From a virus (taxonomy: Duplodnaviria > Heunggongvirae > Uroviricota > Caudoviricetes): a DNA stretch of 35,721 nt. Made by a program: the position numbers and the translations under genes. A model generated the notes under the pieces. It was given only the letters and a program-made list of their open reading frames with translations. It was not told the DNA's origin and made no database searches. The DNA lies in IMG/VR virus record IMGVR_UViG_2713896776_000006, one strand, 5' to 3'. Position 1 is the stretch's first letter; every line of letters begins with the position of its first letter. Positions 3,895 to 35,721 of this stretch are shown here, one piece after another.

Positions 3895-4166
3895 GTATTC
3901 GTATTGAAATTGGCGAACGTTATGTCGTTACCAGTGACAGCTTTCAGTTTATTCTCCACGAGAAAAAGAGAGCTGAAAGCGGTAAAAACGCCGGTCAGGA
4001 ATGGCTGGCGGTGGTTGGTTATTACCCGAAATTAAGCCAGCTTGTTTCCGGCCTGATGCATCACGATATTCTGACCGGAAGCGCAAAGTCTTTTGCTGAT
4101 TTAAACGCGCAGGTTGAGCAACTCAGCAAGCGTTGTTCAGAGGCTTTTGGCTCATATGGCCGTTAA
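3891..4166 (+). CDS. Early hypothetical protein (P2 orf83-like)
   Basis: 91-aa ORF, GGAGAA SD; overlaps start of A as in P2. Confidence 0.5.
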   Translation: MSIRIEIGERYVVTSDSFQFILHEKKRAESGKNAGQEWLAVVGYYPKLSQLVSGLMHHDILTGSAKSFADLNAQVEQLSKRCSEAFGSYGR

Positions 4167-7439: not shown

Positions 7440-7499
7440 TGCGCGTTAAAGATTTTATTATGGCTATTGACTTGCTTTGTGTTCAGAAATGAACTAACT

Positions 7500-10007: not shown

Positions 10008-11042
10008 CTAATAATCCTCATCGCTAAGTTTGTAATTTTTAAAACATATTACTGATTCTCCTACCCAATGATTGACCTCACTGAGCCGGTTTTGGAGTGG
10101 AGTAAGTTCATTTCGCACGAATACTTTTGCCACTTTCTCAATATCACCCAGTGACCCGACATTCTCCGGCTTGCCGCCCATCAACTGAAAGGGGACGCGG
10201 TGTGCGTCCAGCAGGTCTGCGGCGCTGGCTTTTTTGATATTAAAAAAATCGTCCTTCGTTGCCACTTCACTGAGCGGGATAATTTTGATGCCGTCGGCTT
10301 TCCCCTGTGGGGCATAGAGAAACAGATTTTTAAAGTTGTTGCGGCCTTTCGACTTGACCATGTTTTCGCGAAGCATTTCGATATCGTTGCGATCCTGCAC
10401 GGCATCGGTGACGTACATGATGTATCCGGCATGAGCGCCATTTTCGTAATACTTTCGGCGGAACAGCGTGGCCGACTCATTCAGCCAGGCAGAATTAAGG
10501 GCGCTGAGATATTCCGGCAGGCCGTACAGCTCCTGATTAATATCCGGCTCCAGCAGGTGAAACACGGAGCCGGGCGTGAAGGCTGTCGGCTCGTTGAAGG
10601 ACGGCACCCACCAGTAAACATCCTCTTCCACACCACGGCGGGTATATTTTGCCGGTGAGGTTTCCAGTCTGATGACCTTACCGGTGGTGCTGTAACGCTT
10701 TTCCAGAAACGCATTACCGAACACCAGAAAATCCAGTACAAAGCGGCTGAAATCCTGCTGAGAAAGCCACGGATGCGGGATAAATGTTGAGGCCAGAATA
10801 TTACGTTTGACGTAAATCGGTGAGCTGTGATGCACGGCAGCACGCAGGCTTTTTGCCAGACCGGTAAAGCTGACCGGTGGCTCATACCATCTGCCGTTAC
10901 TGATGCACTCGACGTAATCCAGAATGTCACGGCGGTCGAGTACCGGCACCGGCTCACCAAAGGTGAATGCCTCCATTTTCGGGGCGCTGGCGGTCATTGT
11001 TTTTGCCGCAGGTCGCGGTGTTTTCCCTTTTTTCTTGCTCAT
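10008..11042 (-). CDS. Q: Portal protein
   Basis: 344-aa ORF, first gene of leftward late operon, stop/start overlap with P; same length as P2 gpQ. Confidence 0.93.
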   Translation of the reverse strand: MSKKKGKTPRPAAKTMTASAPKMEAFTFGEPVPVLDRRDILDYVECISNGRWYEPPVSFTGLAKSLRAAVHHSSPIYVKRNILASTFIPHPWLSQQDFSRFVLDFLVFGNAFLEKRYSTTGKVIRLETSPAKYTRRGVEEDVYWWVPSFNEPTAFTPGSVFHLLEPDINQELYGLPEYLSALNSAWLNESATLFRRKYYENGAHAGYIMYVTDAVQDRNDIEMLRENMVKSKGRNNFKNLFLYAPQGKADGIKIIPLSEVATKDDFFNIKKASAADLLDAHRVPFQLMGGKPENVGSLGDIEKVAKVFVRNELTPLQNRLSEVNHWVGESVICFKNYKLSDEDY

Positions 11043-12814
11043 CAGTAAAACTCCAGAATGGTGGATGTCAGTGGGGTGCTGATACCGGCGGTGAGTGGCT
11101 CATTTAACAGGGCGTGCATGGTCGCCCAGGCGAGGTCGGCGTGGCTGGCTTCCTCGCTGCGGCTGGCCTCATAGGTGGCGCTGCGTCCGCTGCTGGTCAT
11201 GGTCTTGCGGATAGCCATAAACGAGCTGGTGATGTCGGTGGCGCTGACGTCATATTCCAGACAGCCACGGCGGATAACGTCTTTTGCCTTGAGCACCATT
11301 GCGGTTTTCATTTCCGGCGTGTAGCGGATATCGCGCGCGGCGGGATAGAACGAGCGCACGAGCTGGAACACGCCGACACCGAGGCCGGTGGCATCAATAC
11401 CGATGTATTCGACGTTATATTTTTCGGTGAGTTTGCGGATGGATTCAGCCTGAGTGGCAAAGTCCATGCCTTTCCACTGGTGACGCTCAAGTATTCTGAA
11501 TTTGCCACCGGCCACCACCGGCGGTGCCAGCACCACGCATCCGGCGCTGTCGCCACGGTGTGACGGGTCGTAACCAATCCATACCGGGCGGGAACCGAAC
11601 GGATTGGCGGCAAAGGGTGCATAGTCTTCCCATTCTTCCAGCGTGTCGACCATGCAGCGTTGCAACTCCTCGAACGGGAACACCGACGCCTTGTCGTCAA
11701 CAAATTCACACATGAACAGGTTTTTAAAATCGTCGGCGCTGTTTTCGCGTTTGAGCTGTTCAATGTCGAACAGCGTGCAGCCACCTTTCAGGGCGTCCTC
11801 AATGGTGACAATCTGCCGCCACTGGCCGTCTGCACAGAGAAGCCCACCGGCAAGGGCGTTATGACTGACGTCGATTTCCACGCGTTCGGCGGCGCTGGCG
11901 CGTCCCCGGTTGAACAGTTCACCCGACCAGAACGGGTAGGCGTCGTGCGCCAGCGTGGACGGGGTGGAGAAATAGGTCGAGCGCAGGTGACTCTGTGAGG
12001 CCATACCTGATGCCACCTTACGCAGTACCTGAAAATTCGGGATCCAGAAAATCTCATCGACGTACAGGTCGCCGTTATGGCTCTGCGCGGTGTTGGAGTT
12101 GGTGCCGAGAAAAATCAGTTTTGCGCCGTTATTGCCCAGGACAATCGGGTCACCGGTCAGGTCAACGTCAACCAGCCGGGCAAAGGCGATGATGTATTCG
12201 CGGAACACATACGCCTGCGTTTTACTGGCCGACAGAAAAATCTGGTTATGACCGGTTTTCAGGGCGCGCAGCAGCGCCTCGCGGGAAAAATAAAACGTCG
12301 CGCCAATCTGGCGGGATTTCAGGATATCGCGGATGCGGTGCTCAAGCCCGGCGCGATACCAGTGCAACTGATAGTCGAAAGACTGCTCAAAGAAAATCTG
12401 CTCCAGCTTTTCGATGGCCTCGTCACTGAAAAAATTCTTTTTCGGTTTGCGACGCCCGCCTTTGTTGCGGTTAGCGACGTTCGGATTAAGGTCTGCCTCG
12501 TTGCCGGTCTGACTGTAGCGGTTGACCCGCGCCAGTCGTTCAATCTGGCGTCCCAGCAGGTCAATTTCCTTGAAGTCACCGCCGGTTTTCTGCGGTTTGA
12601 TGATGAGCTGGGTCAGCCGCGCTTCCAGACTCATTTCGACACGGCTGATGGGGGCAACGCTGTCCCAGCCGTCGCGCTGTTTCCAGCTCTGCACCGTCGG
12701 GCGTTTCATCTGCAACATGGCGGCAATCTGCGGCACGGAAAACCCCTGCCAGTACAGCAGCGCCGCCTGACGACGCGGATCGTGTAAAAGAGTGGTGTCT
12801 GTGGTGATGGTCAT
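11042..12814 (-). CDS. P: Terminase large subunit (ATPase)
   Basis: 590 aa from the internal ATG preceded by GGCGAGG (track ORF extends 10 codons further); same length as P2 gpP. Confidence 0.93.
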   Translation of the reverse strand: MTITTDTTLLHDPRRQAALLYWQGFSVPQIAAMLQMKRPTVQSWKQRDGWDSVAPISRVEMSLEARLTQLIIKPQKTGGDFKEIDLLGRQIERLARVNRYSQTGNEADLNPNVANRNKGGRRKPKKNFFSDEAIEKLEQIFFEQSFDYQLHWYRAGLEHRIRDILKSRQIGATFYFSREALLRALKTGHNQIFLSASKTQAYVFREYIIAFARLVDVDLTGDPIVLGNNGAKLIFLGTNSNTAQSHNGDLYVDEIFWIPNFQVLRKVASGMASQSHLRSTYFSTPSTLAHDAYPFWSGELFNRGRASAAERVEIDVSHNALAGGLLCADGQWRQIVTIEDALKGGCTLFDIEQLKRENSADDFKNLFMCEFVDDKASVFPFEELQRCMVDTLEEWEDYAPFAANPFGSRPVWIGYDPSHRGDSAGCVVLAPPVVAGGKFRILERHQWKGMDFATQAESIRKLTEKYNVEYIGIDATGLGVGVFQLVRSFYPAARDIRYTPEMKTAMVLKAKDVIRRGCLEYDVSATDITSSFMAIRKTMTSSGRSATYEASRSEEASHADLAWATMHALLNEPLTAGISTPLTSTILEFY

Positions 12815-21680: not shown

Positions 21681-23975
21681 ATGAGCACGAAATTTAAAAC
21701 CGTTATCACTACTGCCGGAGCCGCGAAGCTGGCAGCCGCCACTGTTCCCGGCGGGAAAAAAGTAAACCTGTCTGCAATGGCCGTGGGTGACGGTAATGGC
21801 AAATTGCCGGTGCCGGATGCCGGTCAGACGAAACTGGTGCATGAGGTCTGGCGTCACGCTCTGAATAAAGTCAGCGTGGATAACAAGAATAAAAACTATA
21901 TCGTGGCTGAACTGGTTGTACCGCCCGAAGTGGGCGGCTTCTGGATGCGTGAGCTTGGCCTGTACGATGATGCGGGAACGCTAATTGCCGTGGCGAACAT
22001 GGCCGAAAGTTATAAACCCGCTCTTGCCGAAGGCTCAGGGCGTTCGCAGACCTGCCGCATGGTCATCATCGTCAGCAGTGTGGCCTCAGTGGAGCTGACC
22101 ATTGACACCACAACGGTGATGGCGACGCAGGATTACGTTGATGACAAAATTGCAGAGCATGAACAGTCACGACGTCACCCGGACGCCTCGCTGACCGCAA
22201 AAGGTTTTACTCAGTTAAGCAGTGCGACCAACAGCACGTCTGAAACACTGGCCGCAACGCCGAAAGCGGTAAAGGCCGCCTATGACCTTGCTAACGGGAA
22301 ATATACTGCGCAGGATGCCACCACGGCGCGAAAAGGCCTTGTTCAGCTCAGTAGTGCGACCAACAGCACGTCTGAAACGCTCGCCGCAACGCCGAAAGCG
22401 GTAAAGGCCGCCTATGACCTTGCTAACGGGAAATACACTGCACAGGACGCCACCACCGCGCGAAAAGGTCTTGTCCAGCTCAGTAGCGCCACCAACAGCG
22501 ATTCTGAAACGCTTGCGGCAACACCAAAGGCGGTTAAGACAGCGTATGACCTTGCTAACGGGAAATACACTGCACAGGATGCCACCACGGCGCGAAAAGG
22601 TCTTGTCCAGCTCAGTAGCGCCACCAACAGTGATTCTGAAACCCTCGCGGCAACGCCAAAAGCGGTGAAGTCTGCCTATGACAATGCTGAAAAACGTCTT
22701 CAGAAAGATCAGAACGGTGCGGATATTCCGGGAAAGGATACCTTCACGAAAAATATCGGTGCCTGTCGTGCTTATAGCGGCGCTTTGAGCACTGAAGCCG
22801 GAAACTGGACAACCGCTCAGTTTATTGAATGGCTGGATTCCCGTGGTGCATTTAATCATCCGTACTGGATGTGCAAAGGCTCCTGGTCATATGCAAATAA
22901 CAAAATCATTACGGATACCGGATGTGGTGATATCCACCTGGCTGGTTGTGTCGTCGAAGTCATGGGAACAAAATCTGCAATCACTATTCGAGTGACCACG
23001 CCGACAACATCAAGCGGTGGCGGTACAACCAGCGCGCAATTCACTTACATTAATCATGGGGACGGCTACTCCCCCGGCTGGCGTCGTGACTGGAATCGTC
23101 AGGGCGACGCAATGACCGGAACGATTAATCAGGATGGCGGAAGCCAGAATGCCTATATGTCTACGGCCTTATGTTCAGGCACCAGAGGCGGCAAAAAATA
23201 TCTCAGAAAGTTTCGTGGTGGAGAAGGAGACACTATCTGGCATGAAACAGTGCAGGGCGGGGTAATTCGCTGGGCGACAGGAAACTATGACGATCAGGAA
23301 GAATTATCACTCAGCTCCGCTTATGGTCTCCGTTCTAGAGGTGAAATTACATCACTCAGTGCTAATGGTCTGCGCATTGCTTATGGCAATTATGGATTCT
23401 TTATCAGGAATGATGGCGGCAGCACATATTTAATGCTGACGGCCTCTGGCGATAAATTTGGGACATGGAACGGTTTAAGACCGCTGACTATCAATAACGC
23501 TAATGGCGGAGTGTCAATGGGGCATGGCCTGAGTGTTACTGGTGATATTGCCTCAAGTACCAAAGTACGCGCCGGTAGCGGGAAAAAGTTCACGGTCAGC
23601 AGCAGTAATACATCCACGAAGGAAGCCGCATTCAATTTGTGGGGAAACTCAAGTCGTCCGGTGGTGGCTGAATTAGGTGATGATGCAGGCTGGCATTTTT
23701 ACAGTCAGAGAAATACAGATAACAGCATCACTTTTGCTGTTAACGGTCAGGTATCACCATCTAACTATAGTAATTTTGATTCCCGTTATGTACGCGATAT
23801 CCGGCTTGGGACTCGAGTTGTCCAGACCATGCAGAAAGGGGTGATGTATGAGAAAGCAGGGCACGTAATTACCGGGCTTGGTATTGTCGGTGAAGTCGAT
23901 GGTGATGACCCCGCAGTATTCAGACCAATACAAAAATACATCAATGGCACATGGTATAACGTCGCACAGGTGTAA
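21681..23975 (+). CDS. H: Tail fibre protein (longer than P2 gpH; contains internal tandem repeats)
   Basis: 764-aa ORF between I and G; conserved N-terminus, repeated SSATNS..TLAATPKAVK..YDLANGKY motif, divergent C-terminal (receptor-binding) half. Confidence 0.9.
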   Translation: MSTKFKTVITTAGAAKLAAATVPGGKKVNLSAMAVGDGNGKLPVPDAGQTKLVHEVWRHALNKVSVDNKNKNYIVAELVVPPEVGGFWMRELGLYDDAGTLIAVANMAESYKPALAEGSGRSQTCRMVIIVSSVASVELTIDTTTVMATQDYVDDKIAEHEQSRRHPDASLTAKGFTQLSSATNSTSETLAATPKAVKAAYDLANGKYTAQDATTARKGLVQLSSATNSTSETLAATPKAVKAAYDLANGKYTAQDATTARKGLVQLSSATNSDSETLAATPKAVKTAYDLANGKYTAQDATTARKGLVQLSSATNSDSETLAATPKAVKSAYDNAEKRLQKDQNGADIPGKDTFTKNIGACRAYSGALSTEAGNWTTAQFIEWLDSRGAFNHPYWMCKGSWSYANNKIITDTGCGDIHLAGCVVEVMGTKSAITIRVTTPTTSSGGGTTSAQFTYINHGDGYSPGWRRDWNRQGDAMTGTINQDGGSQNAYMSTALCSGTRGGKKYLRKFRGGEGDTIWHETVQGGVIRWATGNYDDQEELSLSSAYGLRSRGEITSLSANGLRIAYGNYGFFIRNDGGSTYLMLTASGDKFGTWNGLRPLTINNANGGVSMGHGLSVTGDIASSTKVRAGSGKKFTVSSSNTSTKEAAFNLWGNSSRPVVAELGDDAGWHFYSQRNTDNSITFAVNGQVSPSNYSNFDSRYVRDIRLGTRVVQTMQKGVMYEKAGHVITGLGIVGEVDGDDPAVFRPIQKYINGTWYNVAQV
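22200..22690 (+). repeat. About 3.7 tandem copies of a 132-nt (44-aa) repeat inside H
   Basis: Repeat unit KG(F/L)(T/V)QLSSATNS(T/D)SETLAATPKAVKAAYDLANGKYTAQDATTAR seen three times in full plus a partial fourth copy; period measured as 132 nt (22203 to 22335). Confidence 0.85.
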
Positions 23976-23978
23976 TTT

Positions 23979-24506
23979 ATGCAACATTTAAAAAATATTA
24001 CTGCGGGTAATCCAAAAACTGTTGCCCAATATCAACTGACAAAAAATTTTGATGTTATCTGGTTATGGTCCGAAGAGGGAAAAAACTGGTATGAGGAAGT
24101 AAGTAATTTTCAGGAGGACACGATAAAGATTGTTTACGACGAGAATAATATAATTGTCGGCATCACCCGAGATGCTTCAACGCTTAACCCTGAAGGTTTT
24201 AGCGTTGTTGAGGTTCCTGATATTACTGCCAACCGACGTGCTGATGACTCAGGTAAATGGATGTTTAAGGATGGTGCCGTGATTAAGCGGATTTATACGG
24301 CAGACGAACAGCAGCAACTGGCAGAATCACAAAAGGCAACTTTGCTTTCCGAAGCCGAATCCGTGATTTTGCCGCTGGAGCGCGCTGTCAGGCTGAATAT
24401 GGCAACAGATGAGGAGCGTAGCCGACTGGATGCATGGGAGCGTTACAGCGTTCTGGTCAGTCGTGTGGATCCTGCAAATCCTGAATGGCCGGAAATGCCG
24501 CAATAA
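23979..24506 (+). CDS. G: Tail fibre assembly chaperone
   Basis: 175-aa ORF immediately after H; same length as P2 gpG. Confidence 0.9.
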
Positions 24507-24752
24507 GTTGTATGAGCTCTGGTGTGAGCTTACATATCTATGGCACAGAGTAAAGACTAATCTGACAGTCCGCTCTGTGCCAGAAGCGGACCTTCCAACA
24601 AGCTATATAGGAGCTAAAAAATCCTCATTGATCCAGGCTTTGAGCTTGTAAATTACCATTCCTAAAAGTTACATAATAAGTTCTATAATGTGTAGCATGG
24701 ATGATTAATATAGTTGTTTTAAGTTAAGTCCCTACAGGATATGGAGTTTTTT

Positions 24753-25205
24753 ATGTTACAACAACTGGCCTGTGAGTTTTTTATTGAGTTTTCACGATAT
24801 GAATATTGCCTTAAGGCATGTGGGATTTTAATCAATGGAGGCCATTTAAAAGCTGACTGGAATGGATATTCCGATCAGGTGCGTGACGTTATCGAAAACC
24901 CGTCTACCCCTAAACTTAATGAAGCGATTCATTACTTCGAAGAGCATCCCCCTAAAAAACAGATTTACGGTGAAAAAGGGATCATGTGGTCGGAAAAACT
25001 ACCGAGTTCCCGGCACCGGGCTGAACTAATTTTACTGCTGGTCTGTCGAGTAAGAAACAATCTCTTTCACGGCGGAAAATTCAATGGTAATTGGTTTGAA
25101 CCGGAACGCAGTGAGCAGTTAATCCGGCACGCCCTCACCATCCTACGGGCCTGTGCGGAGAAACACGCCGGAGTGAAAGATGCCTATGAGAACAAACACT
25201 TCTGA
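24753..25205 (+). CDS. Cargo hypothetical protein with HEPN-like Rx4-6H motif (RVRNNLFHGG)
   Basis: 150 aa from the ATG preceded by GGAG with 6-nt spacer (track ORF starts 4 codons earlier). AT-rich. Only a single short motif supports the HEPN idea. Confidence 0.5.
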   Translation: MLQQLACEFFIEFSRYEYCLKACGILINGGHLKADWNGYSDQVRDVIENPSTPKLNEAIHYFEEHPPKKQIYGEKGIMWSEKLPSSRHRAELILLLVCRVRNNLFHGGKFNGNWFEPERSEQLIRHALTILRACAEKHAGVKDAYENKHF

Positions 25206-25311
25206 GACGGGTCACTGCTACAACCCAGCCCATAACGGCAACTCTGACAGAATCATTAAAGGTTACTAGTACATTAAAAGAAATCGCTAAAGCAGTCGGA
25301 TTTATGTCTAT

Positions 25312-25357
25312 GGGGAGCAGGTCAAGACGAAGCTAGCCCTGCTCCCCGTGATTTTTA
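25312..25357. terminator. Bidirectional terminator-like hairpin between convergent cargo genes
   Basis: 10-bp stem ggggagcagg/cctgctcccc with 16-nt loop, followed by gtgattttta. Confidence 0.5.
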
Positions 25358-25383
25358 TATACCCACCACGGAGGCATTAGGCC

Positions 25384-26109
25384 CTATTGCCTTTTTTTCA
25401 GGTCATCAAGAATGCTCTGCTTTTCGGCAACCAACATTTTGTACACATCATCATCACTTTTAAGATTAAATTTGAAATGCGATCGTCCCACAGATATGCC
25501 GGATACGCCTTCAATCCACATATCCTTGGCTATTTTTTCATCTGAGTCATCTAGGGCATTTTCAGAAATCTTATCAAGGGATGAGAGGATATCCCCATGC
25601 AACTGTAACAATTTTTTATATGTGATTGATGGCGAATTTTCCTTCCTCCGAGAGATCAAGCTTAGATCATTAATCTGGGCGTTAACGCGATCAATAATAC
25701 CAAAAACTCCTAAGCGAGCCTCAACTGACTTGCGCTCAGATTTATGTTTTGCGCCTGTTTGAAATAACAGCTCGGAGTTAATATACGAACCTAGATCATG
25801 TGCATCTTTCACCATGGTTCTAACACCCTCACTAAAGTGTGGGTATCCGATAACTAGCCCCCCCAGTAGTGGGATGATCTTACCGTAAGCGGTGATTTTC
25901 GCGATGATTGAGCCTTCAGAGAACTCAACTGTTATCTCTACCTCACTTCCAATAAAAAAAGGTATTCGGCTCTTCGCAAAGGCAGTTATTTGCTTCTCAA
26001 TCTCATTGATTCTTAGTTTCTTATCTTGAGGGGTCGCATTTTTTAACCACTCAGGATTAACATGAACATACGATTGAGAAATGATATTCCCTGATACATA
26101 GTTTGCCAT
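25384..26109 (-). CDS. Cargo hypothetical protein (241 aa), unknown function
   Basis: ORF with GGAG SD 5 nt upstream of ATG; AT-rich; no motif I can assign. Confidence 0.6.
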   Translation of the reverse strand: MANYVSGNIISQSYVHVNPEWLKNATPQDKKLRINEIEKQITAFAKSRIPFFIGSEVEITVEFSEGSIIAKITAYGKIIPLLGGLVIGYPHFSEGVRTMVKDAHDLGSYINSELLFQTGAKHKSERKSVEARLGVFGIIDRVNAQINDLSLISRRKENSPSITYKKLLQLHGDILSSLDKISENALDDSDEKIAKDMWIEGVSGISVGRSHFKFNLKSDDDVYKMLVAEKQSILDDLKKRQ

Positions 26110-26292
26110 TCTTACTCCATTAACAAGTTACTTTAGCCACCTAGTAATACCCCTAATTTCAGGAGATATCGATATCATTCGCAACGATTGACCTGTTCCC
26201 AGTTGATTGATACACGACATTGTGAGCAAGATCTATGGCAACTCAAGTACGAACGTCTGCTGATCGCTCAGAGCGGACGGCCTTCGTGGAAG

Positions 26293-27102
26293 TTAGTCTT
26301 GTTGTGGTGGCTCTTTCCAGCGCCATTGCAAGACATTCTCATCGCTGAGAATAAACAGTCCTGACCAAATTGCCGTCCAAAACTGGACATTCAGACACCA
26401 TGGGCGTGTCATAAACCAGCGTAACGGTTTTGCTTCAAACAGATGAATACCTTTTCGCGATGGTGAATATAACGGGGGGCGTCCCACTAACGGCAGACAA
26501 AAGCCCCATTTCCAATATTCAGCAATACGCCTTCGGGCAAATTCAATTGCATTACAGTTCCAGATGATACCCCAACGCCGTTTCCATGTATCATTGAGAC
26601 ACCAGTTTTGCATTAGCGAATATTTGGGCGAATTGTCAATAGATATACTTTCACCAGTCATTAAATTTATCGTGCAATATTTTAACTGGTACTGTTCAAC
26701 CGTAAATGCGAATCCATCATCTAGAATAAGTACATCAAGTGTAGGAATATTTGAAAGCGTTAATATTATCGGTGAGTTATTTACATCATGAATGCATAGT
26801 GTTTCTTGGTAGCGTAAGCCACTGCCAATGGCTTCAAAAACAAGTTCAACTTGTTGCAGTGGTTCCTCTTTGCTTCTGAAAGCAATACGTGAACAACGAG
26901 GTTCTTTATCTGTCAACTGAGCAAATCGTAGACTGTACTCCAAATAATTCCCTAAGGAATGCCAGCTCGCCCCTAGCCTGTGTCTCACTGCCCAGCGCTC
27001 ATGTGAGAGTTGATAAGTTTTTATCAGCATTATCTGGGTAAGAGTAGACCAGCATTTCTTCACTACTGTAACAATTGCACCAAAAGGAACAGGAAGTGAC
27101 AT
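26293..27102 (-). CDS. Cargo hypothetical protein (269 aa, Trp-rich), unknown function
   Basis: ORF upstream of and co-oriented with the 241-aa gene (183-bp gap); weak GGGG SD; AT-rich; start uncertain (alternative internal Met). Confidence 0.5.
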   Translation of the reverse strand: MSLPVPFGAIVTVVKKCWSTLTQIMLIKTYQLSHERWAVRHRLGASWHSLGNYLEYSLRFAQLTDKEPRCSRIAFRSKEEPLQQVELVFEAIGSGLRYQETLCIHDVNNSPIILTLSNIPTLDVLILDDGFAFTVEQYQLKYCTINLMTGESISIDNSPKYSLMQNWCLNDTWKRRWGIIWNCNAIEFARRRIAEYWKWGFCLPLVGRPPLYSPSRKGIHLFEAKPLRWFMTRPWCLNVQFWTAIWSGLFILSDENVLQWRWKEPPQQD

Positions 27103-27361
27103 TACTAAACCCCTACAAATATCAGATAATTAGGTTTTATATCATTTCAGTCAGTGTAATCAAATGATAATCAGGATTGGGGCTAATCTTGAACGCCACT
27201 AAAGATCGGCAACAATGGGGATCCAATGTTTCGTTAGTGATTTTTCGCATTAGCAGATACATGCTTACTTCCGCTCCTCGCTCAAAGCAGACTGTCAGAT
27301 TTGATAGCGTTTGGGCTATGTAAATTGTCAGTTGGAAAATGAGTGAGTGCAAATCAGGACA

Positions 27362-27388
27362 GGCGGGCGAATTGCCCGCCTTTTCTTT
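27362..27388 (+). terminator. Terminator-like hairpin (ggcgggc-gaatt-gcccgcc-tttt) upstream of FI
   Basis: 7-bp GC stem with 5-nt loop and T-rich tail seen directly; would insulate the FI late promoter from cargo-island transcription. Confidence 0.4.
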
Positions 27389-27484
27389 ATCTGTTGTTTC
27401 ATCCACTGACCAGCCAGGTCAAATAGCGTCTCATGCTCTGCACAACAGAAAATAGTTGCACCCATTAACCACGGAGTTAAACGG

Positions 27485-28675
27485 ATGAGTGACTATCATC
27501 ACGGCGTGCAGGTGCTGGAGATTAACGACGGCACCCGCGTCATTTCCACCGTATCCACCGCCATTGTCGGCATGGTCTGCACGGCCAGCGATGCGGATGC
27601 GGAAACCTTCCCCCTCAATAAACCGGTGCTGATTACCAATGTGCAGAGCGCAATTGCAAAGGCCGGTAAAAAAGGCACGCTGGCGGCATCGTTGCAGGCC
27701 ATCGCTGACCAGTCAAAACCGGTCACCGTTGTCGTGCGCGTGGAAGACGGCACCGGCGACGACGAGGAAACGAAACTCGCGCAGACCGTTTCCAATATCA
27801 TCGGCACCACCGACGAAAACGGTCAGTACACCGGACTGAAAGCCCTGCTGGCGGCGGAGTCGGTAACCGGTGTTAAACCTCGCATTCTCGGCGTGCCGGG
27901 ACTGGACACCAAAGAGGTGGCGGTTGCACTGGCATCAGTCTGTCAGAAGCTGCGCGCTTTCGGGTATATCAGCGCATGGGGCTGTAAAACCATTTCCGAG
28001 GTGAAAGCTTACCGCCAGAATTTCAGCCAGCGTGAGCTGATGGTCATCTGGCCGGATTTCCTCGCATGGGATACGTTCACCAGTACCACTGCCACCGCGT
28101 ATGCCACCGCCCGTGCGCTGGGTCTGCGTGCCAAAATCGACCAGGAGCAGGGCTGGCATAAAACGCTGTCCAACGTCGGGGTGAACGGTGTTACCGGCAT
28201 CAGCGCATCTGTATTCTGGGATTTGCAGGAGTCCGGCACCGATGCTGACCTGTTGAACGAGTCAGGCGTCACTACGATTATTCGCCGCGACGGTTTCCGA
28301 TTCTGGGGTAACCGTACCTGCTCTGATGACCCGCTGTTCCTCTTTGAAAACTACACCCGCACCGCGCAGGTGCTGGCCGACACGATGGCTGAGGCGCACA
28401 TGTGGGCGGTGGACAAGCCCATCACCGCAACGCTGATTCGCGACATCGTTGACGGCATCAATGCCAAATTCCGTGAGCTGAAAACAAACGGCTATATCGT
28501 GGATGCGACCTGCTGGTTCAGCGAAGAATCCAACGATGCGGAAACCCTCAAGGCCGGAAAACTGTATATCGACTATGACTATACCCCGGTGCCTCCTCTC
28601 GAAAACCTGACCCTGCGCCAGCGTATTACTGATAAATACCTGGCAAATCTGGTCACCTCGGTTAACAGCAATTAA
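27485..28675 (+). CDS. FI: Contractile tail sheath protein
   Basis: 396-aa ORF; same length and order as P2 gpFI. Confidence 0.95.
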   Translation: MSDYHHGVQVLEINDGTRVISTVSTAIVGMVCTASDADAETFPLNKPVLITNVQSAIAKAGKKGTLAASLQAIADQSKPVTVVVRVEDGTGDDEETKLAQTVSNIIGTTDENGQYTGLKALLAAESVTGVKPRILGVPGLDTKEVAVALASVCQKLRAFGYISAWGCKTISEVKAYRQNFSQRELMVIWPDFLAWDTFTSTTATAYATARALGLRAKIDQEQGWHKTLSNVGVNGVTGISASVFWDLQESGTDADLLNESGVTTIIRRDGFRFWGNRTCSDDPLFLFENYTRTAQVLADTMAEAHMWAVDKPITATLIRDIVDGINAKFRELKTNGYIVDATCWFSEESNDAETLKAGKLYIDYDYTPVPPLENLTLRQRITDKYLANLVTSVNSN

Positions 28676-29262: not shown

Positions 29263-29538
29263 ATGAACAAAGAAAATGTGATTACCCTGGACAATCCGGT
29301 CAAGCGTGGTGAGCAGGTTATCGAACAGGTCACGCTGATGAAACCTAATGCCGGGACGCTGCGCGGTGTCAGTCTGGCTGCGGTCGCAAACTCCGAAGTC
29401 GATGCACTGATTAAAGTGCTGCCGCGCATGACGGCACCGATGCTGACCGAGCAGGAGGTCGCCGCACTGGAACTGCCTGACCTTGTGGCGCTGGCCGGTA
29501 AGGTGGTCGGTTTTTTGTCGCCGAACTCGGTGCAGTGA
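29263..29538 (+). CDS. E: Tail assembly chaperone E
   Basis: 91-aa ORF between FII and T; P2 length. Confidence 0.85.
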   Translation: MNKENVITLDNPVKRGEQVIEQVTLMKPNAGTLRGVSLAAVANSEVDALIKVLPRMTAPMLTEQEVAALELPDLVALAGKVVGFLSPNSVQ

Positions 29539-29690
29539 CGTTCCCGAAAAATCTCTCGGTCGATGACCTGATGGCGGATGTGGCAGTGATATTTCACTGG
29601 CCGCCATCAGAACTGTATCCCATGAGCCTGACCGAACTCATCACATGGCGCGAAAAGGCGCTCCGGCGAAGCGGAAACACGAATGAGTAA
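29263..29690 (+). CDS. Tail assembly chaperone E+E' (predicted -1 programmed frameshift product)
   Basis: TTTTTTG heptamer at 29511..29517 near the end of E; the -1 frame stays open to a TAA at 29688..29690 overlapping the T start, giving about 142 aa as in P2 E+E'. Confidence 0.6.
29511..29517 (+). promoter_or_regulatory. Slippery heptamer TTTTTTG (candidate -1 ribosomal frameshift site)
   Basis: Seen directly; conserved mechanism for tail chaperone pairs (P2 E/E+E', lambda G/GT). Confidence 0.6.
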
Positions 29691-32130
29691 CAATGTAAAA
29701 TTACAGGTATTGCTCAGGGCTGTTGACCAGGCATCCCGCCCGTTTAAATCCATCCGCACAGCGAGTAAGTCGCTGTCGGGGGATATCCGGGAAACACAAA
29801 AATCACTGCGCGAGCTGAACGGTCAGGCATCCCGTATTGAGGGGTTTCGCAAGACCAGTGCACAGCTCGCCGTGACTGGTCATGCACTTGAAAAGGCACG
29901 GCAGGAGGCTGAAGCACTTGCCACACAGTTTAAAAACACTGAACGTCCGACCCGTGCTCAGGCGAAAGTGCTGGAATCCGCAAAGCGTGCGGCGGAGGAC
30001 TTACAGGCGAAATATAACCGCCTGACGGATTCCGTTAAACGCCAGCAGCGGGAACTGGCCGCTGTGGGAATTAATACCCGCAATCTTGCACATGATGAGC
30101 AGGGGCTGAAAAACCGTATCAGTGAAACCACCGCACAGCTTAACCGGCAGCGTGACGCGCTGGCGCGTGTCAGTGCACAACAGGCAAAACTTAACGCAGT
30201 CAAACAGCGTTATCAGGCAGGAAAAGAACTTGCCGGAAATATGGCCTCAGTGGGCGCTGCCGGTGTGGGGATTGCGGCGGCGGGAACGATGGCCGGAGTT
30301 AAGCTGCTGATGCCCGGTTATGAGTTTGCGCAGAAAAACTCAGAATTGCAGGCCGTGCTCGGTGTGGCAAAAGATTCCGCCGAAATGGCCGCGCTCCGCA
30401 AACAGGCGCGCCAGCTCGGCGACAATACTGCCGCCTCGGCGGATGATGCTGCCGGTGCGCAGATTATCATTGCGAAAGCCGGTGGGGATGTTGATGCCAT
30501 TCAGGCGGCAACGCCGGTCACGCTGAATATGGCGCTGGCGAACCGCCGCACGATGGAAGAAAACGCCGCCCTGCTGATGGGGATGAAATCCGCCTTTCAG
30601 CTTTCAAACGATAAGGTCGCTCATATCGGGGATGTTCTCTCCATGACGATGAACAAAACCGCCGCCGATTTTGACGGTATGAGCGATGCGCTGACCTATG
30701 CCGCACCAGTGGCAAAAAATGCCGGTGTCAGCATTGAAGAAACCGCCGCAATGGTCGGGGCGCTGCATGACGCAAAAATTACCGGTTCAATGGCGGGGAC
30801 GGGAAGCCGTGCCGTGTTAAGCCGCCTGCAGGCACCGACGGGAAAAGCATGGGATGCACTGAAAGAGCTTGGTGTGAAAACCTCAGACAGCAAGGGAAAC
30901 ACCCGACCAGTATTTACCATTCTGAAAGAAATGCAGGCCAGTTTTGAGAAAAACCGGCTCGGTACTGCCCAGCAGGCTGAATACATGAAAACCATTTTCG
31001 GGGAGGAGGCCAGCTCAGCCGCCGCTGTGCTGATGACTGCCGCCTCAACCGGAAAGCTGGACAAACTGACCGCTGCGTTTAAAGCCTCAGACGGGAAGAC
31101 CGCAGAGCTGGTAAATATCATGCAGGACAACCTCGGCGGTGACTTTAAGGAGTTTCAGTCCGCTTATGAGGCGGTGGGGACTGACCTGTTTGACCAGCAG
31201 GAAGGCGCACTGCGTAAGCTCACGCAGACGGCCACAAAGTATGTGTTAAAACTCGACGGCTGGATCCAGAAAAACAAATCACTGGCGTCAACCATTGGCC
31301 TCATTGCCGGTGGCGCGCTGGCACTTACTGGCATCATCGGTGCCATTGGTCTTGTAGCCTGGCCGGTTATCACCGGCATCAATGCCATCATCGCGGCAGC
31401 AGGCGCAATGGGGGCAATCTTCACGACGGTTGGCAGTGCTGTTATGACGGCCATCGGGGCGATTAGCTGGCCGGTTGTGGCCGTGGTGGCCGCCATTGTC
31501 GCCGGGGCGTTGCTTATCCGTAAATACTGGGAGCCTGTCAGCGCATTCTTTGGCGGTGTGGTGGAAGGGCTGAAAGCGGCATTTGCGCCGGTGGGGGAAC
31601 TGTTCACGCCACTTAAACCGGTGTTTGACTGGCTGGGTGAAAAGTTACAGGCCGCGTGGCAGTGGTTTAAAAACCTGATTGCCCCGGTCAAAGCCACCCA
31701 GGACACCCTGAATCGTTGCCGTGACACGGGCGTCATGTTCGGGCAGGCACTGGCTGACGCGTTGATGCTGCCGCTTAGTGCGTTCAACAAACTGCGCAGT
31801 GGTATTGACTGGGTACTGGAAAAACTCGGTGTTATCAACAAAGAGTCTGACGCACTTGACCAGACTGCCGCCAGAACTCATGCCGCCACGTATGGCACCG
31901 GTGGTTATATTCCGGCGACCAGCTCTTATGCAGGCTATCAGGCTTATCAGCCGGTTACGGCACCGGCTGGCCGCTCTTATGTGGACCAGAGTAAAAACGA
32001 ATATCACATCAGTCTGACGGGCGGTACTGCGCCGGGGACTCAGCTCGACCGCCAGTTACAGGATGCGCTCGAAAAATACGAGCGGGATAAACGTGCGCGC
32101 GCCCGTGCCAGCATGATGCATGACGGTTAA
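29683..32130 (+). CDS. T: Tail tape measure protein
   Basis: 815-aa ORF, coiled-coil N-terminus and Gly/Ala-rich hydrophobic middle; P2 length. Confidence 0.92.
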   Translation: MSNNVKLQVLLRAVDQASRPFKSIRTASKSLSGDIRETQKSLRELNGQASRIEGFRKTSAQLAVTGHALEKARQEAEALATQFKNTERPTRAQAKVLESAKRAAEDLQAKYNRLTDSVKRQQRELAAVGINTRNLAHDEQGLKNRISETTAQLNRQRDALARVSAQQAKLNAVKQRYQAGKELAGNMASVGAAGVGIAAAGTMAGVKLLMPGYEFAQKNSELQAVLGVAKDSAEMAALRKQARQLGDNTAASADDAAGAQIIIAKAGGDVDAIQAATPVTLNMALANRRTMEENAALLMGMKSAFQLSNDKVAHIGDVLSMTMNKTAADFDGMSDALTYAAPVAKNAGVSIEETAAMVGALHDAKITGSMAGTGSRAVLSRLQAPTGKAWDALKELGVKTSDSKGNTRPVFTILKEMQASFEKNRLGTAQQAEYMKTIFGEEASSAAAVLMTAASTGKLDKLTAAFKASDGKTAELVNIMQDNLGGDFKEFQSAYEAVGTDLFDQQEGALRKLTQTATKYVLKLDGWIQKNKSLASTIGLIAGGALALTGIIGAIGLVAWPVITGINAIIAAAGAMGAIFTTVGSAVMTAIGAISWPVVAVVAAIVAGALLIRKYWEPVSAFFGGVVEGLKAAFAPVGELFTPLKPVFDWLGEKLQAAWQWFKNLIAPVKATQDTLNRCRDTGVMFGQALADALMLPLSAFNKLRSGIDWVLEKLGVINKESDALDQTAARTHAATYGTGGYIPATSSYAGYQAYQPVTAPAGRSYVDQSKNEYHISLTGGTAPGTQLDRQLQDALEKYERDKRARARASMMHDG

Positions 32131-32624: not shown

Positions 32625-33787
32625 TGCTGGATGCGCTGACATTTGATGCAGGCAGTACGCTGACGCCGGATTACATGCTGATGCTCGACAGCAGGGATAT
32701 TACCGGCAATATCAGTGACCGTCTGATGAGCATGACCCTGACGGATAACCGGGGCTTTGAGGCTGACCAGCTTGATATTGAACTGAACGATGCCGACGGG
32801 CAGGTCGGGCTGCCGGTTCGTGGCGCTGTCCTGACGGTGTATATCGGCTGGAAAGGTTTTGCCCTGGTATGCAAGGGGAAATTCACCGTTGATGAGGTTG
32901 AACACCGGGGCGCACCGGATGTGGTCACCATCCGCGCCCGGAGTGCAGATTTTCGTGGCACGCTCAATTCCCGCCGGGAAGGCTCCTGGCATGACACCAC
33001 GCTCGGTGCGATTGTTGAGGCGATTGCCTCCCGTAACAGGCTGGAAGCCAGTGTCGCTCCGTCACTGGCCGGAATTAAAATCCCGCACATCGACCAGTCG
33101 CAGGAGTCTGATGCGAAATTCCTGACCCGTCTTGCTGAACGCAACGGCGGTGAGGTGTCGGTAAAAATGGGAAAACTGCTGTTTCTCAAAGCGGGGCAGG
33201 GGGTGACGGCCAGCGGTAAAAAAATCCCGCAGATTACCATCACCCGCAGCGACGGCGACCGTCATCATTTTGCGATTGCTGACCGTGGAGCCTACACAGG
33301 CGTAACGGCAAAGTGGTTACACACCAAAGACCCGAAGCCACAAAAGCAGAAGGTAAAACTGAAACGCAAAAAGAAAGAGAAACACCTGCGCGCACTGGAG
33401 CACCCGAAAGCGAAACCGGTCACGCAGAAGAAAGCGCCAAAAGTACCGGAAGCGCGCGAAGGTGAATACATGGCCGGTGAGGCTGACAACGTTTTTGCCC
33501 TGACCACGGTATATGCCACGAAAGCGCAGGCCATGCGCGCCGCTCAGGCGAAGTGGGATAAACTGCAACGGGGCGTTGCGGAGTTCTCCATCAGCCTGGC
33601 TACCGGTCGTGCAGATATTTACACGGAAACACCGGTCAAAGTGTCAGGCTTTAAGCGCGTCATAGACGAGCAGGACTGGACAATCACTAAGGTGACACAT
33701 TTTCTGAATAATAGCGGCTTCACGACGTCCCTGGAGCTTGAGGTCAGGCTTTCTGATGTGGAGTACGAAACAGAAGATGACGAGTGA
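32624..33787 (+). CDS. D: Tail protein D (late gene control / tail assembly)
   Basis: 387-aa ORF; P2 length and order. Confidence 0.9.
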   Translation: MLDALTFDAGSTLTPDYMLMLDSRDITGNISDRLMSMTLTDNRGFEADQLDIELNDADGQVGLPVRGAVLTVYIGWKGFALVCKGKFTVDEVEHRGAPDVVTIRARSADFRGTLNSRREGSWHDTTLGAIVEAIASRNRLEASVAPSLAGIKIPHIDQSQESDAKFLTRLAERNGGEVSVKMGKLLFLKAGQGVTASGKKIPQITITRSDGDRHHFAIADRGAYTGVTAKWLHTKDPKPQKQKVKLKRKKKEKHLRALEHPKAKPVTQKKAPKVPEAREGEYMAGEADNVFALTTVYATKAQAMRAAQAKWDKLQRGVAEFSISLATGRADIYTETPVKVSGFKRVIDEQDWTITKVTHFLNNSGFTTSLELEVRLSDVEYETEDDE

Positions 33788-33868
33788 TGTTTTTATTTTA
33801 TCTATTTGTTTTATAAGGATAAATTAACTAAAATGGCACCATCAACAAAACCGGAAGAGGTGCTCGCG

Positions 33869-34087
33869 ATGTTTCATTGTCCTTTATGCCAGCATGCCGC
33901 ACATGCGCGTACAAGCCGCTATATCACTGACACGACAAAAGAGCGTTATCACCAGTGTCAGAACGTGAATTGCAGTGCCACGTTCATCACTTATGAGTCG
34001 GTACAGCGATACATCGTGAAGCCGGGAGAAGTCCACGCCGTAAGGCCGCACCCGTTGCCATCAGGGCAGCAAATTATGTGGATGTAA
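33869..34087 (+). CDS. ogr: Ogr zinc-finger late transcription activator
   Basis: 72 aa from MFHCPLCQHAAHARTSRYITDTTKERYHQCQNVNCSATF (CxxC...CxxxxC zinc finger), GAGG SD; last phage gene before attR as in P2. Confidence 0.9.
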   Translation: MFHCPLCQHAAHARTSRYITDTTKERYHQCQNVNCSATFITYESVQRYIVKPGEVHAVRPHPLPSGQQIMWM

Positions 34088-34097
34088 TTACAAACAG

Positions 34098-34125
34098 AAA
34101 GCCCCTCAGTCGAGGGGCTTTTTTG
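34098..34125 (+). terminator. Rho-independent terminator after ogr
   Basis: gcccctc-agtc-gaggggc followed by tttttt, seen directly. Confidence 0.7.
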
Positions 34126-34188
34126 TCGATGTGGTCAATGTGTGGACGTGACCAGAAATAAATCCTTTTATTTCAATTTGTTGTACGT

Positions 34189-34215
34189 AAAAAATAAGCC
34201 CGTGTAAGGGAGATT
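34189..34215. repeat. attR core: 27-bp direct repeat identical to 478..504
   Basis: Exact identity with the left copy; overlaps the 3' terminator of the sRNA gene on the minus strand. Confidence 0.8.
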
Positions 34216-34275
34216 ACACAGGCTAAGGAGGTGGTTCCTGGTACAGCTAGCATTTTATGGGTTATGTTTTTCAGC
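34189..34275 (-). ncRNA. cyaR: CyaR (RyeE) Hfq-dependent sRNA
   Basis: Reverse complement reads gctgaaaaacataacccataaaatgctagctgtaccaggaaccacctccttagcctgtgtaatctcccttacacgggcttatttttt, which matches my recollection of E. coli CyaR, including the terminal hairpin and U-tract. It lies between yegQ and P2-like prophage DNA as in E. coli K-12. Recollection only, not alignment-verified. Confidence 0.6.
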
Positions 34276-34359
34276 GAAACGGATGATAACCTTAATAAAT
34301 GCAGCTGTATGTGATCGGTTTCTAAGAATTTTCCATCCGGGAAAAATAATCGAAATTAA

Positions 34360-35721
34360 TCACTTACCGTGTGGGTTACGCGTGGTTTCCCCGGAGAAAT
34401 TACGCATCAGCAGAGCGTAATTGAGCTCAAGATCCTGCGGGACCGGGAGCCACACAGTATAACCATCGCCTGGTGCGACCGGCATCGCTTCACCTTTGGC
34501 GTTTTCCATGTGCTCAAGGGTAAAGTTAATGTTGCCTTGCGGCGTCATCAGCTCAAGGCTGTCGCCAACGGAGAATTTATTTTTCACCGCTACCGCCGCG
34601 AGGTCCCCCTTGCGCTCACCGGTAAACTCACCAACAAACTGCTGGCGGTCAGAAACTGAATAACCGTATTCGTAGTTCTGATAATCGTCGTGAGTATGAC
34701 GACGCAGGAAACCTTCGGTATAGCCACGATGCGCCAGACCTTCCAGAGTTTCCAGCAGGCTGGTATCGAACGGTTTGCCCGCAGCGGCGTCATCGATAGC
34801 TTTACGGTAAACCTGTGCGGTGCGTGCGCAATAGTAGAAAGATTTAGTACGGCCTTCGATTTTCAGCGAATGCACGCCCATTTTGGTCAGGCGTTCTACA
34901 TGGGCGATGGCGCGCAGATCTTTCGAGTTCATGATGTAAGTGCCGTGCTCATCTTCAAACGCGGTCATATACTCGCCCGGACGCTGGGCTTCTTCGATCA
35001 TAAACACTTTGTCGGTTGGCGCGCCGATACCCAGCGTCGGCTCAACATTTTGCACCGGAATCGGCTCGTACTTGTGTACGATGTTGCCAACGTCATCTTC
35101 TTTCCCTTCCTGGACGTTGTACTCCCAGCGGCAGGCGTTGGTGCAGGTACCCTGGTTCGGATCGCGCTTGTTGATATAGCCAGAGAGCAGGCAGCGACCG
35201 GAGTAGGCCATGCACAGTGCGCCGTGAACGAAGATCTCGATCTCCATATCCGGCACCTGATTGCGGATCTCTTCAATCTCTTCCAGCGACAGCTCGCGAG
35301 AGAGGATCACGCGGGTCAGGCCCATTTGCTGCCAGAATTTCACCGTCGCCCAGTTTACGGCGTTAGCCTGCACCGAGAGGTGGATCGGCATTTCAGGGAA
35401 GTGCTCACGCACCAGCATAATCAGCCCTGGATCGGACATAATCAGCGCATCCGGCCCCATTTCCACCACCGGTTTCAGGTCACGGATAAAGGTTTTCAGC
35501 TTGGCGTTGTGCGGTGCAATGTTGACCACGACATAAAACTTTTTCCCCAGCGCGTGGGCTTCATTGATGCCGAGCTGAAGATTTTCGTGGTTGAATTCGT
35601 TGTTGCGCACACGCAGGGAGTAACGCGGCTGGCCCGCATAAACAGCATCTGCGCCATAAGCGAAAGCGTAACGCATATTTTTCAGCGTTCCCGCCGGGGA
35701 AAGGAGTTCCGGTTTAAACAT
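34360..35721 (-). CDS. yegQ: Peptidase U32-family protein YegQ (tRNA U34 hydroxylation, TrhP)
   Basis: 453-aa ORF, complete with its start at the window edge; sequence (MFKPELLSPAGTLKNMRYAFAYGADAVYAGQPRY...) recognised as E. coli YegQ; host gene outside the prophage. Confidence 0.88.
   Translation of the reverse strand: MFKPELLSPAGTLKNMRYAFAYGADAVYAGQPRYSLRVRNNEFNHENLQLGINEAHALGKKFYVVVNIAPHNAKLKTFIRDLKPVVEMGPDALIMSDPGLIMLVREHFPEMPIHLSVQANAVNWATVKFWQQMGLTRVILSRELSLEEIEEIRNQVPDMEIEIFVHGALCMAYSGRCLLSGYINKRDPNQGTCTNACRWEYNVQEGKEDDVGNIVHKYEPIPVQNVEPTLGIGAPTDKVFMIEEAQRPGEYMTAFEDEHGTYIMNSKDLRAIAHVERLTKMGVHSLKIEGRTKSFYYCARTAQVYRKAIDDAAAGKPFDTSLLETLEGLAHRGYTEGFLRRHTHDDYQNYEYGYSVSDRQQFVGEFTGERKGDLAAVAVKNKFSVGDSLELMTPQGNINFTLEHMENAKGEAMPVAPGDGYTVWLPVPQDLELNYALLMRNFSGETTRNPHGK

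Follow-up and report, generated by a model that had tools for sequence, protein, structure and literature searches.

The IMG/VR virus record IMGVR_UViG_2713896776_000006 has an insert of 2,978 bp (24507-27484), with three open reading frames (ORFs) here called A, B and C (Table 1), which separates its tail-fibre assembly gene G from its sheath gene FI. The window, by which we mean the whole 35,721-nt stretch that was analysed, is a complete P2-like prophage with its insertion point between yegR and yegQ, in which Int, replication protein A, portal, capsid and tail genes are all present. An earlier note on this DNA had described about 3 kb of lower-GC sequence splitting G from FI, with three ORFs, a hairpin between A and B and another before FI, and this description is borne out: the domain matches of G and FI and the size of the insert confirm the split, all three ORFs were found intact with the coordinates, strands and lengths listed in Table 1, and both hairpins fold strongly (z-scores of -4.6 and -4.3 respectively). 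The GC content of the insert is 0.38-0.47 compared with 0.55-0.59 in FI and downstream; that of the tail-fibre genes upstream is just 0.45-0.50, so the step is sharp on the FI side only. Homologues of A, B and C remain full length down to 27-40% identity, and the ratios of nonsynonymous to synonymous substitution rates (dN/dS) are 0.22, 0.10 and 0.21 respectively, from which we conclude that all three are real genes.

The insert is a variable accessory (moron) locus. Its flanks match 1,213 Escherichia coli genomes and 68 phage records, nearly all of them by the flanks alone; the cargo is matched in just five of those E. coli genomes, which have all three genes, and the phage records cover at most about 10% of the island, in the flanks only. 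The claim of the earlier note that the G-FI junction is an exchangeable variable locus thus holds in more than 1,200 E. coli genomes that have common flanks and differing contents. The junction is a documented moron region (PMC6823313) and a secondary defence hotspot within the tail genes (bioRxiv 10.64898/2026.02.27.708500), and the present locus is a textbook case of this already known P2 hotspot. The terminator upstream of FI (hairpin 27361-27381 followed by UUUUCUUU, -20.1 kcal/mol), which is also called by a terminator scan, falls within the right flank that is common to hundreds of E. coli genomes regardless of cargo. No RNA family in Rfam matched the island at E values up to 1.

Table 1. 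Features of the G/FI junction and of the surrounding prophage (positions are those of the window)
Feature	Position	Strand	Remarks
Integrase	584-1597		
Replication gene A	4114-6432		
Portal gene	10008-11042		
Tail-fibre assembly gene G	23979-24506		PF02413 Caudo_TAP, E 1.3e-34
Left boundary site, G-proximal type	24568..24591	+	GTCCGCTC-TGTGCCAG-AAGCGGAC, 8-8-8 imperfect palindrome
ORF A, 150 aa	24753..25205	+	Small stand-alone HEPN-like protein; E17-x3-K21, R101-N-N-L-x-H106-G-x-K
Hairpin and U-run between convergent A and B	25312..25357	+	Hairpin part 25312-25347
ORF B, 241 aa	25384-26109	-	GGAG Shine-Dalgarno; phrog_31894, unannotated
Internal boundary site, FI-proximal type	26255..26278	-	Spacer TGAGCGAT; divides A+B from C cassette
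ORF C, 269 aa	26293-27102	-	Unannotated, Trp-rich (5.6% Trp)
Right boundary site, FI-proximal type	27269..27292	-	GTCTGCTT-TGAGCGAG-GAGCGGAA
Intrinsic terminator, canonical	27361..27389	+	Conserved phage backbone, just outside cargo, upstream of FI
Sheath gene FI	27485-28675		PF04984, PF17482, PF22671

The limits of the cargo are marked by a 24-nt imperfect palindrome that occurs at three positions in the window and at no other, at 24568 on the plus strand and at 26255 and 27269 on the minus strand, against a chance expectation of 0.03. Its consensus consists of three 8-nt blocks (GTCYGCTY, TG[T or A]GC[C or G]AR and RAGCRGAM). The left site, which lies 65 nt past the G stop codon, has an extended outer arm (AATCTGACAGTCC, from 24559), and a 32-nt inverted repeat with 84% complementarity is formed by 24559-24590 and 27270-27301; corresponding left and right inverted repeats are annotated in the GenBank Z-region records AJ512676 and AJ512682. 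We surveyed the geometry of the sites in about 28 independent P2-like loci, drawn from IMG/VR and from fetched records and with cargo of 1.1-6.1 kb, filtering by G/FI context because the loose site pattern has many chance matches in IMG/VR. The G-side site is always on the plus strand, 53 or 65 nt after G, with a spacer that starts with TGTGC in 22 of 22 cases and reads TGTGCCAR in 19 of them, and relative to the window it recurs at the same orientation and distance in 22 other loci with different cargo. The FI-side site is always on the minus strand and 215 nt before FI in each of the 12 loci in which a site was detected (the window counted), its spacer being TGAGCGAR or, in three loci where an A+B cassette abuts FI, TGAGCGAT. 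An extra internal minus-strand site was present, among the approximately 28 loci, only in the window and in the derivative of this prophage in strain NCTC9100.

Break-points in blastn alignments fall on these sites and divide the cargo into two tandem cassettes, of which the first holds the convergent genes A and B (about 24557-26278) and the second holds C (about 26255-27298); the internal site is the end of A+B homology in the loci L025, L026 and L027 and the start of C homology in L002, L003 and L008. The A+B segment (24557/24572-26278 of the window) recurs in three other settings: in UPEC132 at 98.2% identity, at a P2 junction that lacks C and where the internal site is fused straight to the FI flank; in EC14 at 99.4% identity, where it adjoins a type II restriction-modification system as well as a P4-type integrase; and in SCU-101 at 99.6% identity, in a chromosomal hotspot downstream of dynamin, RdcB and patatin genes. 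Two further IMG/VR contigs (L029 and L030) likewise have A+B joined directly to the FI flank. C is found as window segment 26255-27298 at 98.8% identity in clone D i2 and FDAARGOS_1255, in the same chromosomal hotspot as in SCU-101, and as 26253-27292 at 89.6% identity, with the same ends, in a Salmonella conjugative element. Alignment of the junctions indicates that the recipient locus supplies the outer arm (AATCTGACAGTCYGCTYTG) and that the inner arm (WGCSAKNAGCRGAC...) moves with the cassette; in the EC14 insertion the outer arms are degenerate, with weak similarity only.

The chromosomal hotspot downstream of the patatin/RdcB/dynamin-family genes is arranged like the P2 junction in clone D i2 (NC_017651.1, 4789-9038), with a left-type site (+), cargo, a right-type site (-), C and a second right-type site (-). 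The first cargo there comprises a 366-aa hypothetical gene, an integrase fragment and an 'ETEC_3214 family' gene; in SCU-101 (4185-5894) the A+B cassette occupies that chromosomal position instead.

The locus resembles the Z/fun locus of P2 itself (fun(Z); Z-region records AJ512676-AJ512685) in its position between G and FI, its flanks, inverted repeats and pre-FI terminator, and in having exchangeable contents that are unrelated between phages; the cargo here is unrelated to that of other sequenced P2-like phages. Most of the surveyed Z/fun loci have a single cassette, whereas here there are two in tandem with an internal site between them. Site-specific recombination has reportedly been proposed for this junction already, in a paper of 2004. 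Given that proposal and the earlier annotation of the inverted repeats, the idea of a site is not new, and the architecture and the tandem-cassette reading are a refinement of it. The 8-bp arms with an 8-bp spacer, the heterotypic inverted sites and the direct sites of C are what conservative site-specific recombination at the palindromes would leave, and the cassettes may have been moved in this way. The C cassette looks like a single insertion, since it is flanked by two sites of the same type in direct orientation, and the A+B cassette would have arrived by a double-crossover exchange between two heterotypic inverted sites. Integron attC sites, Xer-dependent pdif modules and heterotypic lox/FRT exchange similarly have palindromes with a central spacer at cargo boundaries, the same cassette with identical ends in different replicons, and tandem stacking, and engineered cassette exchange likewise uses two heterotypic inverted sites flanking a locus. 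These systems differ from the present one in that no integrase is linked to this locus or its cassettes, that the sites are oriented +, -, - and not as a uniform array, and that recombination at them is here deduced from sequence. To our knowledge the site sequence is unlike attC, dif or P2 attP.

The protein about which most can be said is A. It starts at the ATG at 24753, which has a well-spaced GGAG, and identical copies in RefSeq are also 150 aa; an alternative ATG at 24741 has poor Shine-Dalgarno spacing. The hairpin that follows the gene (-26.5 kcal/mol on the plus strand; -22.9 kcal/mol, z -3.6 and no U-tail on the minus strand) looks like an intrinsic terminator for A. The family comprises more than 625 clusters at 90% identity, and alignments of 27 close members and of 19 members down to 27% identity (cyanobacterial, alpha- and beta-proteobacterial and phage) show E17, K21, R101, N102, N103, L104, H106, G107 and K109 to be invariant; the motifs read E17-Y-C-L-K21 and R101-N-N-L-F-H106 in the window. 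The HEPN signature is Ex3[KR] followed by Rx4-6H with a polar residue after the Arg (Anantharaman et al. 2013; PMC3710099), and both of its parts are thus present in A as the invariant E17-x3-K21 and R101-N-x3-H106. HEPN_Apea is the sole recurring Pfam family, in two members of the A family (E 0.05 and 0.15, below the gathering score), and one cluster bears the UniRef label 'Apea-like HEPN domain-containing'. A broad A profile matched in the PDB only the C-terminal domain of one CRISPR-associated protein (8y7f, 8y75 and 8y6z; E 0.19-0.29), aligning RNNLFHGGK to RNSVAHGGR; from this motif we read the domain as a putative HEPN, a point on which the name of the PDB entry is silent.

In its R-N-x3-H motif with an upstream E-x3-K, A is similar to HEPN ribonucleases (RNases) such as ApeA, the AbiD/F-type Abi_2 proteins, the HEPN of Csm6/Csx1 and the HEPN protein of an integron cassette (PDB 3jrt); it is also small and, to judge from its sequence, probably helical, and is found on mobile elements next to restriction-modification and defence genes. 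It differs from these systems in having no CARF, MNT or ATPase partner, and neither 3jrt nor any other solved HEPN gave a significant match to its sequence. ApeA has a beta-rich N-terminal domain of about 300 aa fused to an Apea-type HEPN, and a stand-alone HEPN on a gene cassette has a precedent in an integron-cassette family (PMC3710099). We rejected an identification of A as ApeA itself because A, at 150 aa, is without that N-terminal domain and has no match to a PADLOC model at E values up to 1. Literature queries by protein accession and by peptides against published supplements found no description of the A family.

The genes that adjoin relatives of A include Hachiman (in the P4 int-psu hotspot), a Type ISP restriction-modification system together with an HNH gene, and VapBC with a GIY-YIG nuclease; a RES toxin gene is near another relative. 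Further relatives are on plasmids of about 5 kb with no conserved partner, which suggests that A is tolerated without a cognate antitoxin. On plasmid4 of Planktothrix agardhii (AP017995.1, 2459-2968) a 34%-identical member has a large 'putative restriction enzyme' gene on one side and an 'alkaline phosphatase domain-containing' gene on the other, the three being co-oriented, and the small HEPN in cyanobacteria may be an accessory component of a BREX- or PglZ-like cluster. On the evidence of motifs, profiles and context it is quite likely that A is a stand-alone HEPN RNase without constitutive toxicity, and there is a somewhat better than even prospect that it serves as an infection-triggered defence or abortive-infection effector. 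Such an enzyme would be metal-independent, with the Arg and His of the RNNLxH motif as catalytic residues, and would most likely be latent in the lysogen, cutting RNA once another phage infects, to the benefit of the prophage as well.

B has a strictly conserved N-terminus (MANYxxGNIxSQSY), and its predicted structure has an N-terminal beta-hairpin and a helical bundle. A relative at 70% identity is in Rahnella aquatilis (JMPO01000015.1, 2930-6729) in the gpA-portal hotspot of a P2-like prophage, so that B-family genes use both P2 hotspots; it adjoins a pair of genes, one DprA-like and one HAD/PRTase, that matches the DprA-PRTase system, which was validated by Rousset et al. (2022). The relatives of B are otherwise solitary, some of them as morons of other phages; they lie among Pectobacterium metabolic genes, adjacent to a PIN gene, within the tail cluster of a myovirus or beside an integrase. 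Shortened, frameshifted copies of B are present in four E. coli records from three strains (EC14, 19AR0656 and SCU-101), and UTAK-3 has a 725-bp copy. EC14 and SCU-101 have their lesion in common, a 1-bp deletion that maps to 25961, and both have an A that is 100% identical. B may be a helical stand-alone accessory protein with a conserved N-terminal element, most likely a phage-exclusion or host-fitness moron.

The predicted structure of C has a long N-terminal helix, an Ig-like beta-sandwich (residues 48-155, modelled confidently) and Trp-rich C-terminal helices. Its family has 197 representatives at 50% identity, nearly all of 250-300 aa and matching over their full length, with no Pfam domain even in the longest remote members. 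Its relatives are solitary, whether in the cargo of a conjugative element (with a DUF3800 gene beside them), in an integrase island (adjacent to a Lamassu-like LmuB_C/MC3/CTD7 cluster) or in a 51-kb phage contig. C would be a stand-alone accessory protein, perhaps a peripheral, oligomerising or binding protein built on the Ig-like sandwich, and again most likely a phage-exclusion or host-fitness moron. A reading of B or C as a membrane protein, or as an integral-membrane superinfection-exclusion protein, was set aside because hydropathy shows no clear transmembrane helix: the 19-residue Kyte-Doolittle peak is 1.53 in B, in the segment modelled as a beta-hairpin, and near 1.0 as the family mean for C. 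Between C of the window and the copy in clone D i2 (8039-8848) there are four nonsynonymous and no synonymous substitutions, numbers too small to interpret.

Scans of the three proteins against Pfam and NCBIfam gave no matches, PHROGs placed A and B in families of unknown function only, and sequence-profile searches of the PDB with B and C returned noise (L36, CorA and CdtB fragments, E of at least 0.016). These results, with those from PADLOC, agree with the earlier observation that none of the three resembles a virion or lysis protein. B and C had already been catalogued without a function: they are identical in sequence to entries #166 and #167 respectively of the P2-hotspot 'genetic systems' in Table S5B of Rousset et al. 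(2022), both being single-protein entries with no Pfam match, 10 occurrences each and no place among the cloned systems. The hotspot for which the catalogue was compiled is gpA-gpQ; in the window B and C are at the G/FI junction. A was not found in the part of Table S5B that was available, and peptides of A, B and C had no match in the accessible part of the table of cloned systems; a possible identity with the validated 'HP + HP + HP' system, described at the gpA-gpQ hotspot, likewise found no sequence match in the accessible material. Literature searches by protein accession, and by peptides in published supplements, turned up these catalogue entries only.

Whether the genes act together was addressed by their distribution in 5,426 complete E. 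coli genomes, in which A occurs in 12, B in the same 12 and C in 229 (Nissle 1917 included), with all three in five. The earlier note had put forward the 269-aa and 241-aa products as a two-gene system, and the co-oriented minus-strand genes B and C, adjacent with a 183-bp gap and both unannotated, could indeed be taken for a defence or exclusion system to which A is optional; the ten occurrences each in the Rousset catalogue are compatible with co-occurrence there. The same catalogue gives them separate entries, however, and a boundary site lies between them, UPEC132 and the two contigs noted above have A+B without an intervening C, distant homologues of B have no C nearby or the reverse, and seven of the 12 carriers of B lack C. 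B and C are therefore not a pair, and the proposal, largely refuted by the distribution, is very improbable. Comparison across genomes, which the note had suggested as a check on whether the ORFs travel together, gave a divided answer, in that A and B do so, as one recent lineage, and B and C do not. The association of A and B raises another possibility, that they form a functional pair, for instance a HEPN toxin (A) and its neutraliser or sensor (B), since they are together in all 12 genomes and in IMG/VR contigs, at fixed spacing and down to 95.6% identity, in a single site-bounded cassette with a central hairpin common to both. Every co-occurrence nevertheless comes from a single cassette of recent origin (nucleotide identity of 95.6% or more); A is absent from the surroundings of B homologues at or below 70% identity, B is absent from the more than 600 clusters of the A family that were sampled, and the genes are convergent and not one operon. 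As the frameshift common to EC14 and SCU-101 leaves A 100% conserved, B is not an essential antitoxin for A, and we think it improbable that the two are a pair. Membership of A in a type II toxin-antitoxin module was rejected on the same grounds of convergence and of B being frameshifted with A intact, and because A has no conserved neighbour family-wide. No uncalled copy of A, B or C was detected by tblastn in the loci of their partners, each of the three families has neighbours unrelated to those of the other two, and by BLASTP B resembles neither the 'ETEC_3214 family' gene that adjoins C nor the genes found upstream of homologues of A. The three genes thus appear to act independently of one another.

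Our overall reading, which we consider probable, is that the island is a G/FI moron locus made up of two independently acquired tandem cassettes with three independent genes, one of which, A, encodes a HEPN-type RNase. A defence role for the products is plausible, most of all for A; genomic context supports defence or exclusion for A and C and is neutral for B. As B and C recur in the cargo of mobile elements and in islands rich in defence genes, exclusion or defence is their likeliest role, a view that we hold with low confidence. Several results weigh against this reading. The evidence from sequence for HEPN in A is below threshold in every search, no component model of PADLOC-DB v2 matches A, B or C at E values up to 1, and a 2026 preprint predicts an antiviral association for only 15-32% of the unknown genes in P2 hotspots. 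The models of B and C are of moderate confidence (mean predicted local distance difference test scores of 66 and 65) with generic fold matches only, and the dN/dS of B is about 1 in the closest comparison, which together with its pseudogenisation in several strains suggests that B may be dispensable or decaying. No recombinase for the sites was identified, and the conserved sites could be plain backbone whose short homology serves exchange mediated by RecA or by the phage. On hairpin folding only the left site is significantly stable; for this reason we rejected a role of the sites as RNA hairpins or terminators, and they are more likely to be DNA-level elements. The absence of matches to known defence models, the decay of B and the estimate of 15-32% would also fit a locus of neutral or host-fitness morons, or of selfish passengers, that have no anti-phage role and are exchanged by ordinary recombination through backbone homology. 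In keeping with that view, C is mostly fixed at a single site in the chromosome, which adjoins an iron-uptake cluster in strains of B2 type (Nissle 1917, for example), and P2 hotspots are known to carry cargo other than defence genes, for example partition systems and cytolethal distending toxin (PMC9122126). It accounts less well for the invariant nuclease-type signature of A, for the restriction, Hachiman and toxin-antitoxin neighbours that recur across phyla, for the purifying selection on all three genes, for C lying beside Lamassu-like genes and in mobile-element cargo regions, and for break-points that fall in the middle of the palindrome even at an insertion with degenerate outer arms. 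We regard it as unlikely, albeit less so than a B-C system or an A-B pair, and retain the reading of two tandem cassettes with a HEPN-type RNase.

A more far-reaching form of this reading can be offered tentatively, and we doubt that it will hold as a whole. The palindromes might be the core sites of a trans-acting site-specific recombinase that shuttles promoter-containing cassettes between P2-like prophages, the chromosomal hotspot, conjugative elements and satellite-adjacent islands, and A might at the same time found a family of minimal, partner-less HEPN anti-phage proteins. The recombination process behind swapping at the hotspots is still to be elucidated, according to the 2026 preprint; if the recombinase exists, the sites would represent natural cassette exchange without a linked integrase, which would explain the very fast swapping of defence genes that has lately been reported for P2. 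The A family would then be one of widespread, minimal (about 150 aa) partner-less HEPN RNases serving as single-gene anti-phage effectors.

About one in five complete E. coli genomes contains a P2-like prophage, and the hotspots of these prophages have proved to be a source of new immune systems, to which this island adds three candidates. The elements of potentially greater interest are the minimal partner-less HEPN family, with its strong association with defence islands, and the sharply defined boundary site. The A family spans several phyla, in which it lies beside restriction, Hachiman, BREX-like and toxin-antitoxin genes, and should A confer protection by itself, it would rank with the smallest RNase defence effectors known, and one would have to ask what keeps a HEPN without a partner silent. 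The 229 complete E. coli genomes with C include Nissle 1917 and CFT073-type strains, so that any function it has is relevant to well-studied strains. The precisely conserved boundary sites, for their part, provide a testable handle on cargo swapping at the hotspot.

The wider prophage also yielded some observations. NCTC9100 (NZ_LR134239.1, 1691446-1702423) has a heavily deleted derivative of the same prophage at the yegR/yegQ site, keeping only segments 1-371, 11321-11673, 22049-27850, 29473-29838 and 33320-35721 of the window. Its tail-fibre genes and entire A-B-C island are intact at 99.7-100% identity, and the cargo has thus been retained in a 'grounded' prophage, which we count in favour of our overall reading. 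In K-12 just ogrK is left at the yegR/yegQ locus. The other P2 hotspot of the window, between replication gene A and the portal gene, has one 835-aa SIR2_2-domain gene (7467-9974, plus strand, GC content about 0.30), which is probably a SIR2-type NAD-depleting defence gene, and the palindromic G/FI boundary site does not occur in this hotspot of the window. The tail-fibre gene H (21681-23975, plus strand) contains four tandem Phage_fiber_2 repeats of about 42 aa, especially in 22196-22682, with the pattern SSATNS[TD]SETLAATPKAVK.AYDLANGKYTAQDATTARKGLVQL, and their copy number is apparently different in NCTC9100, where self-matches are offset by about 131 bp.

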